DNA of 64,000 nt from Eledone cirrhosa (GCA_964016885.1 OZ024740.1:96348001-96412000), one strand, 5' to 3'; shown: positions 4,723-14,376, counted from the stretch's first letter. Notes: generated by a model not told the origin, from the letters alone. Made by a program: numbers and translations.

Positions 4723-5460
4723 ATACGATATATTAACAAATGGAAACTATATTTATAAAACCATATTTATTTCATTATACATATTTCAAGGACATGAAGT
4801 TAAATTATGGTGCGCTTTCATCAGACAAAATATAATATAGATCAGTTTTGTAAATAAATATTGAATATTAAAAAAAGAATGCGACCATTTCTGTTGGAAG
4901 CTCCCGGATAGTAGGGTTACTAAATTTGTTTAGTCTATTATGCAAATTAGTGTCAGATATGTTTAAATCACAGTAGATTTAAAATAGGCCGTTGGAGTAT
5001 GGATAAAAGAGAAAAGGAAAAGGAAAAGAAAAAGAAAAAGAAAAAGAAAAAGAAAAAGAAAAAGAAAAAGAAAAAGAGAAACAGAAAGAGCAAACTCCAT
5101 ACTACAATGGCCTATTTTAAATCTAGTGTGATTTAAACAAATCCGACACTAATTTGCATAATAGACTAAACAAATTTAGTAACCCGACTATCCTGGAGCT
5201 TCCAACAGAAATGGTCACATTCTTTAAGGTATGTCAATATTTATTTATAAAATTGATCTATATTATATTTTGTCTGGTGAAAGCGCACCATAATTTAACT
5301 TGATGTCCTTGAAATATGTATAATGAAATAAATATGGTTTTATAAATATAGTTTCCATTTGTTAATATATCGTATTTTTACTCCAATAATTTGTTGAGTG
5401 CTTTATATCAGTTATAAAAATATTTGCTTGTTGTATCCCAACAAATTAAATAGAACTTCT
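4723..5460 (+). mobile_element. PLE-derived fold-back element, family A (copy A1)
   Basis: Inverted arms 4723-5003 and 5096-5375, (GAAAAA)n spacer, and an unpaired tail 5376-5460 homologous to the tails at 13960 and 33966. Flanked by (TA)n and (CA)n/(TA)n. Confidence 0.85.
4768..4832 (-). ncRNA. Type-I hammerhead ribozyme in the A1 arm
   Basis: TATTTTGT-CTGATGA-AAG..CTT-GAAA-TATGTA-TA-ATGAAATA. The mirror copy on + has CTGGTGA. Confidence 0.65.
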
Positions 5461-5539
5461 AGACACACACACACACAAAAACACACACACACATATATAT
5501 ATATATATATATATATATATATATATATATATATATAGG

Positions 5540-5940
5540 TTCACAACCCAGTCATGTTTTTAAAGACGTGGCACAGGCAACTAAGAAATTGTTGTTTTCG
5601 ACGAAATATCTGTGTAAGGAGTTTATACGTGATTTCTTGGGGGAATTTTCCAAGGAAACATTTGAATAATATGCGGTCTGTTTCTGTCTTAATGGATTTC
5701 ACTATGATATTAAAAAGTACGCGAGACCATTTGTGGTGAATAGGATTTGAACTATCCATGATTTGAAATGCATATCTGATAGTTGTAGTAGTCTGATAGC
5801 ATGGGGACAAAGCTTCTCGTGGATGTTAAAGGTGATACCTAGATGATTTAGGCAACATTGATAGAATATTTTTCACATCAAACGCAGCGTTGAAGATAGA
5901 GTTGCACTAGTCGGACCTAATTGTCAAGGGCTATCGTACC
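5540..5940 (-). pseudogene. PLE RT-thumb/linker coding remnant
   Basis: KNILSMLPKS..L and LFN..SIKT..R.LF..FP..YKL..F..SC resemble the PLE motif WFNP..KTNIG..F..HFP..KIFNR..SYSC, also seen at 15275 and 49750. Confidence 0.55.
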
Positions 5941-6093
5941 GTCCATCAATTGTCGTGATACTTTCACTTGTTTAAAGAGACAACAGTTGACACACACACT
6001 CACACACACCCACATACTCACACGCACGCACACACACACACACACATACACACACACGCACACACACGCACAGATTTATAGTGAAAGAGTCAG

Positions 6094-6226
6094 GAACCCG
6101 ACGGCTGAGCTCCGGCCGTTTCGACAACCAGAGGTGTTATGGTCCACCCGGGTCCTTACCACACTTTTTTTGAGTGCTCAACCGGCATACCGCCTATGGA
6201 AGCATCTTAGCTACCATCAGACACTC
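6094..6226 (-). ncRNA. Possible degenerate hammerhead with long stem II
   Basis: CTGATGG...GAAA-CGGC-loop-GCCG-TC, lying between (CA)n and (TA)n tracts. Stem I is poor. Confidence 0.4.
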
Positions 6227-7521
6227 ACACAAACATATATATATATATATATATATAGTCAAGAAAAGGAGGCTCTTGACCTTGTTGCATCTAAAATTAA
6301 TGAATTAATGGGATGGAATGAGAAATGTATTCGCAAAGCGGATGTTCGTCTCGGATAGCTGCATGTGAGTTTATTCCGAGAAACGTAGCAAAGAGGCCGT
6401 AGGGGCTGTTAACATAAATGATAGATTATATGGCATGCCATAGAGGTCAACGGTGTATTTCATCCTTTCGTGATTGGCAAAATAGTGTAGTAACCCAGGG
6501 TACATAGATTGGTCAAGCTGTCAGTATACTGGTCAAGATATTTTGCCTTATTTCTTCTTGCTGTATTTCTTCAAATTATACTCAGGTACACCATTGCAAA
6601 CCATGACTGGACAGAAATCACTAACCTATGGAGGAAAGATGAGTGTGAACAGCGGCTAATGCTAACAAAGGACAGCAATGTTGGAAAAGGCTGACCGTTC
6701 CTTTACACTGACAGTTTCTCATCTTTTCGTTCCACATTTCTATAGAATATCAAATAAGTTTGACTAGAACTGGGATTGAACTCGGAATGAAACGTGATGA
6801 TATTTCAATAAAATAAGTCATTAAGTACAATGCTCTATTGATTCTGATTCTGGCATCAACAAACAAATGAGAATGACAATAGAAGTAACAAAATATATTG
6901 TGAAGTTAAATATACAACATCTATATATGATTTGCTGGCAGCTACTACATGTATGTTCTGGGCGGATTTCAGGCCAACATTTTATTGAAACTTCCCCTTT
7001 AAGAACCATATTTCTTTATCAATTCCTGCCCCTGTAAAAATCACTTTTCTCCTGATAGGTTTGCAGCAAGCACGATCATTTCAAAAAAAAAAAAAAAGTT
7101 ATCATTTGTCTGCAGCTCGATACCTATGAAACATTTCGAATTATTCTTATTGCATGAGCAAAAGTAAATAAACATAAAATTGGAAAGAAAATAATACAGA
7201 TAAATGGAAAAAAAAATGAATTGAACTAACGTGATAAATTGTCTTCCGGAAACTAATGACTAGCTGTGACAAAATTACTTTATAACATAAGCTGCTCCGT
7301 TCCAGGTGGCTGGCTACTCGTACAAACTCTTTGCCTGTGTAGTCATTCCCTACAATGTATCTACCGCGCCACCTAATGCAACTTCCGTTGTTGTATTATT
7401 AGTGTGCTAATGAAGCATAATATCATGTATGTTTTAGATATTGCACTTTCCTTTTATTTTTATTCACATTGATATTGTTATTAATATTAATATTTTTTCA
7501 TAGATTTTCACACAAGCCAAT

Positions 7522-7635
7522 ACACACACACACACACACACACACACACACACACACACACACACACACACACACATACACACACACACACACACACATA
7601 TATATATATATATATATATATATATATATATATAT
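7522..7635. repeat. Compound (CA)n(TA)n microsatellite
   Basis: Direct reading. Confidence 0.95.
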
Positions 7636-11874: not shown

Positions 11875-11921
11875 ATTCTACAGAACTAGAACTGTTTCAT
11901 TCGGGAGAAATCATCAGAAAA
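11875..11921 (-). ncRNA. Type-I hammerhead ribozyme (PLE end)
   Basis: CTGATGA-tTTC tccc GAAt-GAAA-CAG ttctagtt CTG-TA, then a ~90-nt tail into (TA)n at 11785. Stem I is short. Confidence 0.55.
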
Positions 11922-12204
11922 CCGACGGTCCCACTGATATCGTGGTATTTCTAAATTTTCTGGGGGGTAGAGAGGGTGGTTATTTGGGATAGGTGGAGGT
12001 CATTGGATGATGAAAATAAAGTAAAGGAAATTCTTTAAAAACTATATTTAGAGTAAGAAAGGCAGACAAATTAAGGCAGATTAAATCAAATTTACACTGA
12101 GGGGGGGGGGGTTGCACGCCTGGTTTTTAAGGTTAATTTATTTGAAGCAAACAATGCCTATTCATTGGTGAGCTCTGCCATAATTGTCAGGTATTTTATA
12201 ATCA

Positions 12205-12510
12205 CACACACGCACACAATCTCTCACCCACACACATGCACACACGCACACTCATATATATATACATACACATGCATACATATCCATATATATATATATA
12301 TATTATACATACACACACATATATATATATATATATATATATATATATATATATATATATATATATATATATATATATATATATATATATATATTATATA
12401 CACATATATATATATATATATATATATATATATACAAAAACATATATGCAAATATATATATATATATATATATATATATATATATATATGTATATATATA
12501 TATATATATG
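12205..12510. repeat. Compound (CA)n/(TA)n microsatellite
   Basis: Direct reading. Confidence 0.95.
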
Positions 12511-13735
12511 TGAAATCACACCTGCTTTCCAGCTCATATAAACTTAACACACTTTCAGATACTTATCCTCCATAAACTCTTATTATTCTCTTTTTAATTA
12601 CCCTTTCTGACTTACTTTCATTTTTATCCTTGTCAATAATTTCATTTATTTTCACTTTTATTTATTTTTACTTCACCCCCCCCCCTTTATTCTCCGATCC
12701 ACTTCCTATTTTCTATTTTTTACTTCCCCTTCTTTTACTTCCCTTTTTCCTCCACTAACTGATTATACTTGTCTTTTGTGTTTTTCAATCCAGATATTTT
12801 CATTTTTATTTTATTTTTGCGCAGCCTATCTTACAATTTTATATTTGTACCTATTTATCTACATTTCAATATGGCTGAACGCCTGAATGTGTGTATACTT
12901 TTTATATATGTACATGAGTGACCACGTATGTGCGCGCGCGTGCATGTGTGTATGTGTGTGTATGTATCTGTGTGTGTGTATGTGTATATGTGTGTGTGTG
13001 TACAGGTGTTCGTGTGGGTGTGTATGTATATATTATACGTATGTGTACGTGTCTTTATATCCGTGTTTTTGACATCTCGGTTTTATGTTTTGTTCCTTTT
13101 TTCTTCTCCCCCCTTCCTTTTTTTACTTACTCAGTTTCATACGTGGGCATGTAAACAGGTTTATATGCGTGAGTATAGGTATGTGTGTGTGTGTATGTAC
13201 GTATCGAACGTATGGAAGTGTAAGTGCGCGTGTTTATATAAGCATAATTATTTTTACATTTCTTTTGTGAGACACGCGTGTCTGTGTATGTATATACCCC
13301 CATTTTTTTGTTTTCTTTAATTTTTTCTTTCTAATTTATAGTTATTATATTTTTATAAATATATCGAGACTGACCCTTTTCTTTTAATTATTACACTCCC
13401 TTACCTCCTTTCTTTCCGCACCTAAGCGTACGAGTGTCCAGGCGTTTTGTGCGTGCGCCTTCATATTCGTATATTTACGATGTAACCATTTCTGTTTGTA
13501 TAATACAGACATATAGATACATTTGCCCTATTTTAGAATTACGCACACTTTCTCACTATACATGTACATGTACACATATACATATATGCACATCTGGGAG
13601 CGTATATACATACATATACACACACCTAACTATATTTCTTGATAGATTTTTATATATTTCAATTTCTATTTCATTTATCTATATCTTTTTTTGATTTTCT
13701 TGATGTGTTTTTCTAAGTATTTGCCCATGTTTTAT

Positions 13736-13813
13736 ATTGCCTCATCTGACGAACGAATGAAGTCGTTTATTTCGTATTCGCCTCATTCGGGAAACCTCTG
13801 GTAGTGAGGTAAT
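13736..13813 (+). ncRNA. Canonical type-I hammerhead ribozyme (PLE end)
   Basis: Stem I ATTGCCTCAT/GTGAGGTAAT, core CTGACGA, stem II CGAATGA..TCATTCG, GAAA, stem III CC-tct-GG, GUA cleavage triplet. A ~100-nt tail follows, then (TA)n. Confidence 0.85.
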
Positions 13814-13959
13814 TATATTGTATTGATTTTTATACATTAAATTTTGCTCTGATACTTACATAGAGCACTCTTCATTTCTATGACCTTTTCTGTTTCCAAC
13901 GGAAATTTCAATACTTATATATATATATATATATATATATATATATATATATATACATA

Positions 13960-14376
13960 AGTAGAAGGGATATTTAATTTGTTGGAAATTCAACAAATAT
14001 AAATGTTTATAACTGATTCAGGCACTGGACATATTTCTGGAGTAAATATTCAATGATGTTAAATAAATGGAAACTATATTTATAAAACCATATTTATTCT
14101 ATTATATATATTTCAAGGGTACCGACAACATTGTTACGCTTTCATCAGATGAAATACAAAGTGTGTTTTATACATTTTGATATAGCCAAAAAAACATACC
14201 TTATCAGTTGACTACCCAAGTAAAATTCAACTGATAAGGTATGTTTCCTTGGCTTTGTGAAAATACATTTTGTATTTTATCTGTTGAAAGCGTACCAAGT
14301 TTTTGGTACCCTTGAAATATATATAATAGAATAAAAAGGGTTTTATAAATATAGTTTACATGTATTTAATACCATT
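13960..14376 (-). mobile_element. PLE-derived fold-back element, family A (copy A2)
   Basis: Arms 14052-14211 and 14227-14376, 15-nt loop, tail 13960-14051. Hammerhead TATTTTAT-CTG(T/A)TGA-AAGCGTACCAA gttt TTGGTACCCTT-GAAA-TATATA-TA-ATAGAATA. (TA)n flanks. Confidence 0.85.

Follow-up and report, generated by a model that had tools for sequence, protein, structure and literature searches.

Hairpin repeats in (TA)n tracts of Eledone cirrhosa as probable head-to-head pairs of truncated Penelope-like element 3' ends

Three hairpin-forming repeats, here called A1, A2 and A3, lie in a 64,000-nt stretch of DNA from Eledone cirrhosa (GCA_964016885.1 OZ024740.1:96348001-96412000, hereafter the window, from a genome of 3.0 Gb), each with (TA)n runs on both of its sides. 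Such a hairpin is very probably a head-to-head pair of 5'-truncated 3' ends, or pseudo-long terminal repeats (pseudo-LTRs), of a Penelope-like element (PLE) set in (TA)n, the mirror arm likely arising afresh with every retrotransposition. The arms correspond to the last 190–370 nt of a 3849-bp unit, the upstream copy of which is the pseudo-LTR, and A1, A2 and A3 are members of three subfamilies. An earlier, preliminary description drawn from the window alone had anticipated part of this arrangement, and its claims are taken up below where the evidence touches them.

An inverted-repeat search of the window placed the outer arms of A1 at 4718-4864 and 5234-5380 (147 nt, 96% identity) and its inner arms at 4874-5003 and 5096-5225 (130 nt, 94%), with 92 nt between the latter. 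For A2 it returned arms at 14043-14134 and 14294-14385 (92 nt, 86%) and inner segments (39 and 38 nt, each at 87%) separated by 15 nt, and for A3 arms at 34045-34236 and 34237-34428 (192 nt, 99%) with 0 nt between. In every copy an unpaired tail of ~80–85 nt extends beyond a single arm (Table 1). A three-way alignment left 283 of 792 columns invariant, with the tail and outer arm aligning and the centres failing to do so. Repeat search and alignment together confirm the preliminary picture of three hairpins with a one-sided tail and an arm identity that falls in the order A3 > A1 > A2. The same description had the three copies sharing their tail and outer ~110 bp; the sharing is real but the length was underestimated, as the part common to the three subfamilies consists of the tail and ~140–150 nt of arm, with divergence setting in upstream of a conserved AAG|GTATGT. 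In a BLAST search the full-length unit aligned with the A1 arms over 142–236 nt and with A2 over 217 nt, the common part again exceeding 110 bp and including the hammerhead-like motif described below.

The parental unit was reached through an own-genome search with the A3 tail and outer arm, from which four copies whose tail runs into coding sequence were fetched. In the full-length copy, L031, (TA)n is followed by an inverted arm (966-1055), a direct arm with its tail (1049-1212), a short leader, an intact open reading frame (ORF; 1264-3477) encoding a protein of 737 aa (P0001), a 1.3-kb 3' untranslated region (3'UTR) ending in (TTTCTT)n, the arm and tail once more (4792-5061), and (TA)n again. 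The pseudo-LTR carries both the conserved AAG|GTATGT, a candidate start of the retained intron typical of EN+ PLEs, and an initiator (Inr)-like TCACT, a candidate transcription start. Its upstream and downstream copies in L032 are identical over 290 nt except for one base, and L113 is a partial tandem in which unit positions 3627-3849 precede positions 2-3849. Projected onto this unit, A3 resolves into window 34235-33966, matching unit 3580-3849 at 94.1%, and window 34238-34428, matching unit 3580-3771. The direct copy and tail of A1 (window 5096-5460) are 94.5% identical to a longer copy, L039, to which window 5094-4723 also aligns as a single BLAST block of 389 nt (88.4%, L039 1399-1781). 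Mapping the breakpoints on the parental PLE, a check that the preliminary description had proposed, thus places the arms within the 3'-terminal 190–370 nt of the unit, with inner ends that vary by locus.

The arrangement is not peculiar to the window. Exact matches to a 29-nt pattern taken from the A3-type arm number 3741 in the genome, against 0 for the reversed control, and neighbours within 10 kb were counted by script for the first 100 of these sites. Of 33 neighbour pairs, 31 are head to head, one is tail to tail and one is a tandem at 3868 bp, a head-to-head excess with a binomial P of 7e-17 against equal orientations. Spacing within the head-to-head pairs runs from 51 bp to 6.8 kb (12 under 500 bp, 19 longer), and 11 of the 12 short pairs (the twelfth being L022, already in the set), eight of the 19 longer ones and the tandem pair were fetched. 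Exactly one tail is present in 17 of the 19 head-to-head loci, one copy running to the unit end at 3849 and the other stopping at ~3771, and TA runs of at least 11 nt lie on both flanks in 17 of 18 loci. In a further mapping of 30 loci, direct copies all extend to the end of the tail, inverted ones all stop ~78 nt before it, and inner ends fall at 1304 to 1437 in 3'UTR coordinates; overall, the inverted copy stops ~78–85 nt short of the unit end. Solo copies of the A2 type start at ACTACCC immediately after (TA)n. The inner ends of the fetched pairs range over unit positions 2144 to 3671, with a hot spot at 3572-3596, just past TTTCACT, that holds both arms in seven of the 11 short hairpins and one arm in L100. 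Copies of fixed length bounded by terminal inverted repeats and target-site duplications, which the preliminary description had named as evidence for a DNA transposon, were not what was found, given the range of copy spacing; nearly every locus has (TA)n on either side, which would mask a target-site duplication as such.

The same comparison accounts for the centres of the hairpins, which had been described as copy-specific. Longer A1-type copies carry a (TTTCTC)n microsatellite and ...AGAGTTTGCTC... ahead of the arm, and the same 3'UTR is present in 13 other loci. Since window 5094-4723 aligns to L039 in one block, what had been called a 92-bp GAAAAA spacer in A1 is simply the inverted copy extending ~90 nt further than the direct one. 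Longer A2-type copies (L073, L076, L082 and L084) read ..CACTACCCAAGGAAAATTCAACTGATAAGGTATGT; the tail-less copy of A2 starts CTACCCAAG and the direct copy TCAACTGAT, and because both starts lie within this A2-type sequence, the supposed 15-nt loop is the tail-less copy reaching 15 nt further. The centres are therefore subfamily-specific 3'UTR sequence into which the longer arm runs further, rather than sequence private to each copy. In searches of the animal's own genome the A1 inner arm returned 2086 first-look candidates (91–93% identity among 40 scored) and the A2 inner arm 2522. The DNA word search skips very common words, so that a high-copy query returns those copies that share its rare variants, which reduced the family with 3741 pattern matches to an apparent 63 candidates. 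The greater likeness of the two arms within a copy than between copies, also noted earlier, is correct among the three window copies, because these belong to three subfamilies, but does not extend to the genome, in which the A2 arms are ~94% identical to arms at other loci and 86.8% to one another.

The protein P0001 contains the motifs RWR (IRRIRWRAF), DKT (SDKTNN), KDHK, RLI.P.K and YRDD, and towards its C-terminus a linker CNCRDRSKC (CxCX5C), an IIY..YVG string without a CC pair, and CDLC..E..N..CKH. These motifs are conserved in 11 relatives; across the 12 aligned proteins YRDD, KDHK, RLI.P.K and DKT are invariant or nearly so, the RW(R/K) position reads RWR, RWK, RWE or RWH, and DK(T/S) occurs in 12 of 12, as DKS in one. 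The putative endonuclease region, IIY..(11-12 aa)..YVG..FK.R...H followed by E and N, is likewise conserved in the relatives, with one cysteine, itself not conserved, between IIY and YVG, and CDLC..E..LN..C(K/R)H thereafter. Craig et al. 2021 (PMC8557442) define the Hydra clade of PLEs with a C-terminal endonuclease (EN+) by an RWK motif, the change of DKG to DKT, the absence of CCHH, a CxCX5C linker, and CxxC and CxH flanking E and N, with insertion into (TA)n and hammerheads present. Judged by this motif list, the element appears to be a PLE with a protein of Hydra-clade type.

A type I hammerhead-like motif was identified in copies of all three subfamilies by a pattern scan of all fetched loci. 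It is predicted to open with a 7-nt strand of helix I and to continue through CUGANGA, a long helix II, GAAA, the palindrome UAUAUAU and an A to the second strand of helix I; 94 distinct versions were collected (172 in all). Helix I pairs at 7/7 positions in most of them, and helix II covaries between the subfamilies (GUACCAAA/UUUGGUAC; AUA.CAUAUU/AAUAUG.UAU; GCACCA/UGGUGU). The predicted ribozyme cut lies after GAAAUAUAUAUA. In the window, both motifs of A3 are intact, and those of A1 and A2 have decayed to different extents (Table 1). Non-LTR retrozymes, which consist of hammerhead units in head-to-tail tandem and give circular RNA, were considered as an identity for these repeats and set aside, the two motifs of a hairpin sitting on opposite strands and a direct tandem of three pseudo-LTR pieces having been seen at L026/L034 only.

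Whether the arms pair by locus or by side bears directly on how the hairpins arise. A shared-variant and permutation test was applied to ten short hairpins from the pattern-based sample, chosen regardless of arm sequence. Identity to the arm of the same locus was 99.66% against 95.46% across loci, a difference reached in 0 of 10000 permutations, and letters departing from the consensus occurred 47 times on both arms of a locus versus six times on one arm. Among 19 A2-type loci the corresponding values were 97.27% and 96.31%, again with 0 of 10000 permutations reaching the former, 16 letters were shared and 79 were single, and no column separated direct from inverted arms save at the flank junction. 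Since variants are common to both arms and side-specific columns are lacking, both arms derive from one source per locus, and the hairpins are not passed on as units whose sides have diverged; arms thus group by locus and not by side, as the preliminary description had expected of an inversion made locally. A side-specific 'scar', with T or a 1-nt deletion on direct arms and A on inverted arms and terminal copies, was pursued and then rejected as an ascertainment artefact. The position falls in the loop of the predicted ribozyme helix II, and lariat branch points, modified bases, nicked RNA and template jumps had been considered as its origin. In the pattern search the site has A in 98 of the first 100 sites, and A/A in 30 of 31 head-to-head pairs; the apparent scar arose because a search that skips common words had been seeded by rare words of the direct arm of A3.

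The divergence between two arms would then record the age of the insertion. Each window copy was compared with the arms of its own subfamily and non-majority letters were counted. A1 has six shared, eight direct-only and 11 inverted-only letters in 280 columns, and an arm-to-arm divergence of 7.1% that includes one extra site with differing non-majority letters on the two arms. A2 has none shared and nine on each arm alone in 150 columns (12.0%), and A3 six shared and none on either arm alone in 185 columns (0%). Arms are 100% identical in six of the ten pattern-sampled loci. The even spread of changes over the two arms and the near-identity of arms in young loci are both consistent with a clock set at insertion, and we infer that A2 was inserted before A1, and A1 before A3. 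The age series of the preliminary description accordingly stands in its order (A3 > A1 > A2 in arm identity) and falls as the series of one family, the copies spanning three subfamilies. Its more general proposal, an inversion made anew at each insertion and datable by arm divergence, is likely to be correct, supported as it is by the shared-variant test and by the balanced decay.

A mechanism consistent with these observations can be outlined. The element's presumed endonuclease would nick both strands of a TA repeat, and two complementary DNAs (cDNAs) would be made from one RNA or one source, one primed at the RNA 3' end and keeping the tail, the other primed ~80 nt upstream, at the border between arm and tail. 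The two would be joined 5' end to 5' end, in a manner resembling twin priming, and the arms, identical at the start, would decay independently afterwards. The hot spot of inner ends after the Inr-like TCACT would likely correspond to the 5' end of a short RNA with its start site within the pseudo-LTR; an Inr-like TCACT is described for rotifer pseudo-LTRs in passages of Arkhipova et al. 2013 (PMC3846280). Some perfect palindromes may come instead from fold-back of a single cDNA, and both routes may occur.

Fold-back, or self-priming, of a single cDNA or template as the general route is plausible although, on balance, doubtful. The hairpin would in this case be opened off-centre at the TA-rich arm/tail border, one arm losing its tail, much as proposed for Penelope in Adineta vaga, for which passages of PMC3846280 infer self-priming from palindromes at inverted junctions. 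It would explain why both arms come from one source, why A3 and several other loci lack a loop and form perfect palindromes, and why inner ends are equal at arbitrary places away from the hot spot (L096 at 3650/3650, L111 at 3468/3468, and L004 and L023 at 1425/1425, in the predicted ribozyme helix II). A single fold-back event, however, allows only the first-made strand to be longer, whereas here the longer arm is the inverted one in A1, A2, L100, L106, L107, L109 and L110 and the direct one in L007, L008, L101 and L114, with differences reaching hundreds of bases in several loci. Arms unequal in both directions favour two cDNAs, and most equal-length junctions lie at unit 3572-3596, where two cDNAs reaching the 5' end of one RNA would match as well. 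A further reading, in which the short hairpins are dimers of a self-propagating ~270-nt RNA, starting at the Inr-like TCACT in the pseudo-LTR and ending at the tail, seems unlikely. It is to be doubted to a similar degree that both arms were reverse-transcribed from one such RNA, or from a ribozyme-paired RNA dimer, at two TA nicks, and that the fixed tail-less end is a footprint of the element's protein on a hairpin at the RNA 3' end. If true, this reading would give the dimeric hammerhead and the PLE 'tail' a mechanistic role and provide a testable model for inverted repeats.

Inheritance of the hairpin as a whole is far less credible. Under this scheme hairpins would be transcribed end to end or duplicated, the inverted repeat being passed on like the terminal repeats of miniature inverted-repeat transposable elements (MITEs) or fold-back elements, and it is just as improbable that later deletions in an unstable palindrome produced the differing centres. 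A2 and L066 do share a junction, with the inverted copy extending to CTA(C/T)CC and the direct copy starting from TCAAC, junctions do cluster within a ~20-nt window, and a T on direct and an A on inverted arms marked one site in the first sample. That site is the sampling artefact dealt with above, no other side-specific column emerged among the 19 A2-type loci, and copying of whole units does not yield locus-private variants on both arms in the proportion of 47 to six. Arm lengths, moreover, are continuous from ~50 nt to kilobases, and the tailed and tail-less ends of kilobase-long pairs are the same as those of short hairpins. Next to no credence can be given to an origin as MITEs, fold-back DNA transposons or Helitron-derived elements that target TA, for all that inverted repeats, small size, TA-rich targets and the CTAG with which A1 ends at its flank would suit them. 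Length is not fixed, the tail occurs at one end only, and the arms represent the 3' terminus of an element whose motifs indicate a reverse transcriptase, and in longer copies they continue into its 3'UTR and ORF; neither an autonomous transposase partner nor excision footprints were seen. Helitron-type ends were dismissed for their part, as A2 and A3 are without CTRR ends and only A1 ends in CTAG. The one-sided tail, the spacing from 51 bp to 6.8 kb and the reverse transcriptase-type parent agree with the earlier view that the inversion is of PLE style and does not represent MITE terminal inverted repeats.

Several observations weigh against the reading of paired pseudo-LTRs made anew from two cDNAs of one PLE. 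In two of the 19 head-to-head loci, L105 and L108, both arms are tailed, and the equal-length junctions outside the hot spot are better explained by fold-back than by two independent cDNAs. A nearest-neighbour test picked out the partner arm in just 3 of 4, 3 of 19 and 2 of 8 loci, a failure attributable to star-like subfamilies, which leave decayed arms nearer to consensus-like arms elsewhere. A Pfam profile search of three ORFs, P0001 included, found no family at E <=0.01, neither RVT_1 nor PF01541; 15 database relatives of P0001 were found, none of them named, and among its Atlas neighbours RVT_1 or GIY-YIG occurs in only some members. Rfam gave no match in the window at the gathering score and no hammerhead in the L031 arm at E <=10. 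The putative assignments of reverse transcriptase, endonuclease and ribozyme accordingly depend on motifs, covariation and unnamed relatives. The tail of 80–85 nt is longer than the 30–40 nt given for the one-sided tail of PLE insertions in parts of PMC3846280 and PMC8557442, and a unit of 3.85 kb exceeds the size of Hydra elements, described by Craig et al. as generally short, under 3 kb.

All three tails contain a small hairpin of the form (U)UUGUUG-loop-CAACAA(A), ~20–25 nt from the 3' end, with a loop that differs between the subfamilies. It may serve as a recognition signal for the reverse transcriptase. Overall RNA folds of the tails were no more stable than those of shuffled sequences (z -1.0 to -1.4). 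The start of the L031 tail (CTCCAAATACTTGTTGAGTGCTTTTATAT, 4983-5012) resembles that of its 5' leader (CTCCAATACTGTTGAGCGCTTTATAT, 1224-1250) in 25 of 29 columns and scores 32 where the best of 1000 shuffles scored 28, in this one element only; the tail may descend from an old duplication of the leader belonging to a tandem unit that followed. Three direct pseudo-LTR pieces stand in tandem, ~456 bp apart, beside a PLE leader at L026 / L034 (G000 C2:45804500-45811800), a head-to-tail array reminiscent of retrozyme-like repeats.

Other ribozyme-like and PLE-related sequences were noted in the window and in the fetched loci. Window 26948-26998 (+) holds one more hammerhead-like core (CTGATGA..GAAATATGTATA), which has another helix II and probably belongs to a different PLE family, and nearby, window 27577-27718 and 27690-27795 form an inverted pair matching a repeat that is also present upstream in L076. 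Weak Rfam matches to Hammerhead_HH9 in the flanks of L031, at 654-729 (+) (25.9 bits, E 0.0042, against a gathering score of 52) and 6802-6877 (-) (18.2 bits, E 1.3), probably come from a different ribozyme-bearing repeat, a similar '..CCTGTTTGCTGA..' stretch standing beside L011. Window 49738-50422 (+) and 50944-51344 contain a decayed piece of another PLE, to which P0001 matched by tblastn over residues 531-649, comprising the linker and part of the putative endonuclease (31.6%, E 1.5e-10), and residues 694-731 (E 2.7e-4); the DNA that follows is 78.7% identical over 409 nt to the 3'UTR upstream of the A1-type arm. A tblastn match to the P0001 linker (residues 531-568, 47%, E 1e-5) at window 15294-15407 (+), ~1 kb from A2, is probably another PLE fragment. 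ORFs matching RVT_1 at 56869-63544 (-) (E 3.9e-22), 39781-40458 (-) (E 4.5e-8) and 42718-43293 (+) (E 2.3e-12), with a weak match to Exo_endo_phos, look like non-LTR retrotransposons resembling long interspersed nuclear elements and unrelated to the hairpins.

Table 1. Positions of hairpin features in the window, counted from its first nucleotide; hammerhead-like motifs are predictions
Feature	Position	Strand	Remarks
(TA)n left of A1, insertion target	4694..4722	.	
A1 tail-less inverted copy, 3' end of A1-type PLE unit	4723..5094	-	BLAST block to L039
Hammerhead-like motif, A1 inverted copy	4776..4824	-	core CTGATGA kept, helix II broken
Reverse complement of 3'UTR (TTTCTC)n within A1 inverted copy	5004..5094		formerly '92-bp GAAAAA spacer'
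A1 direct copy (arm)	5096..5380	+	5'-truncated at ..CATACTAC; BLAST to L039
Hammerhead-like motif, A1 direct copy	5274..5322	+	core mutated to CTGGTGA
A1 tail	5381..5460	+	3'-terminal 80 nt of unit, not in inverted copy; then (CA)n(TA)n
A1 tail hairpin	5425..5446		
A2 tail	13960..14042	-	
A2 tail hairpin	13983..14005	-	
A2 direct copy (arm)	14043..14211	-	5' end at TCAACTGAT
Hammerhead-like motif, A2 direct copy	14103..14148	-	core CTGATGA
A2 tail-less copy	14212..14376	+	starts 15 nt further upstream (CTACCCAAGTAAAAT) than direct copy
Hammerhead-like motif, A2 tail-less copy	14281..14325	+	core mutated to CTGTTGA
A3 tail	33966..34044	-	
A3 tail hairpin	33985..34003	-	
A3 direct copy (arm)	34045..34236	-	inner end at unit position 3580
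Hammerhead-like motif, A3	34102..34151	-	core and helices intact
A3 tail-less copy	34237..34422	+	inner end identical to that of direct copy, no loop
Hammerhead-like motif, A3	34322..34371	+	core and helices intact

These hairpin families in TA microsatellites would, in this light, be PLE remnants and not MITEs, regulatory hairpins or purpose-built ribozyme genes, and the three window copies would represent three very abundant subfamilies of one Hydra-type lineage. The counts obtained here (head-to-head orientation in 31 of 33 pairs, a single tail in 17 of 19 loci, 47 shared against six single letters) supply numbers that are mostly lacking in print for the PLE insertion rule. Arm divergence offers a clock for each single insertion in a class of elements otherwise hard to date; a literature search on dating PLEs from their inverted arms listed general transposon surveys only. 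A genome with thousands of young copies would be good material for solving how the inverted copy of a PLE forms.

Two systems outside the PLEs invite comparison. LTR retrotransposons are reportedly dated by the divergence of their two LTRs, which, like the arms described here, are identical at insertion and diverge thereafter. The arm-specific changes observed here are balanced (8/11 in A1, 9/9 in A2), but the repeats are inverted and variable in length, short arms provide few sites, and gene conversion within palindromes is possible. Twin priming of human L1 is said to give 5'-inverted insertions, and the model outlined above would resemble it in that each nicked strand of the target primes a cDNA and the two cDNAs are linked 5' end to 5' end. 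The L1 parts are, however, adjacent, non-overlapping pieces of one RNA, whereas both arms of a hairpin copy the same 3' segment and form a true inverted repeat, and the second start would here be fixed at ~80 nt from the RNA end.

The closest parallels are found among the PLEs themselves. P0001 matches the motif list of the Hydra clade, and the element shares with that clade its insertion into (TA)n and, by prediction, a hammerhead motif in the pseudo-LTR. Minimal hammerheads in PLE pseudo-LTRs, with dual motifs 100–700 bp apart on opposite strands, are described in passages of Cervera and de la Pena 2014 (PMC4209133). The motif predicted here has the same type I layout, long helix II and opposite-strand pairing of motifs, and likewise a palindrome in place of helix III (AUAUAUAU), which suggests action as a dimer; its helix I is of 7 bp where the consensus in those passages has 4–5 bp, and an A-U pair stands where G10.1-C11.1 is usual. 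The EN+ PLE insertions described in passages of PMC3846280 and PMC8557442 are truncated at the 5' end, include a pseudo-LTR formed by a partial tandem and a neighbouring copy that is inverted and truncated, bear a tail on one side and target (TA)n; both papers call the mechanism of the inverted copy unresolved. Truncation, the tandem pseudo-LTR (L031, L032 and L113), the inverted copy, (TA)n and TCACT are all shared with the element described here, and to these the present analysis adds a quantified head-to-head, one-tail rule and arms shown to share the variants of their source. The hairpins are thus best regarded as an ordinary example of an already described PLE layout, to which this case brings a longer tail, a Hydra-type protein at very high copy number, and counts.

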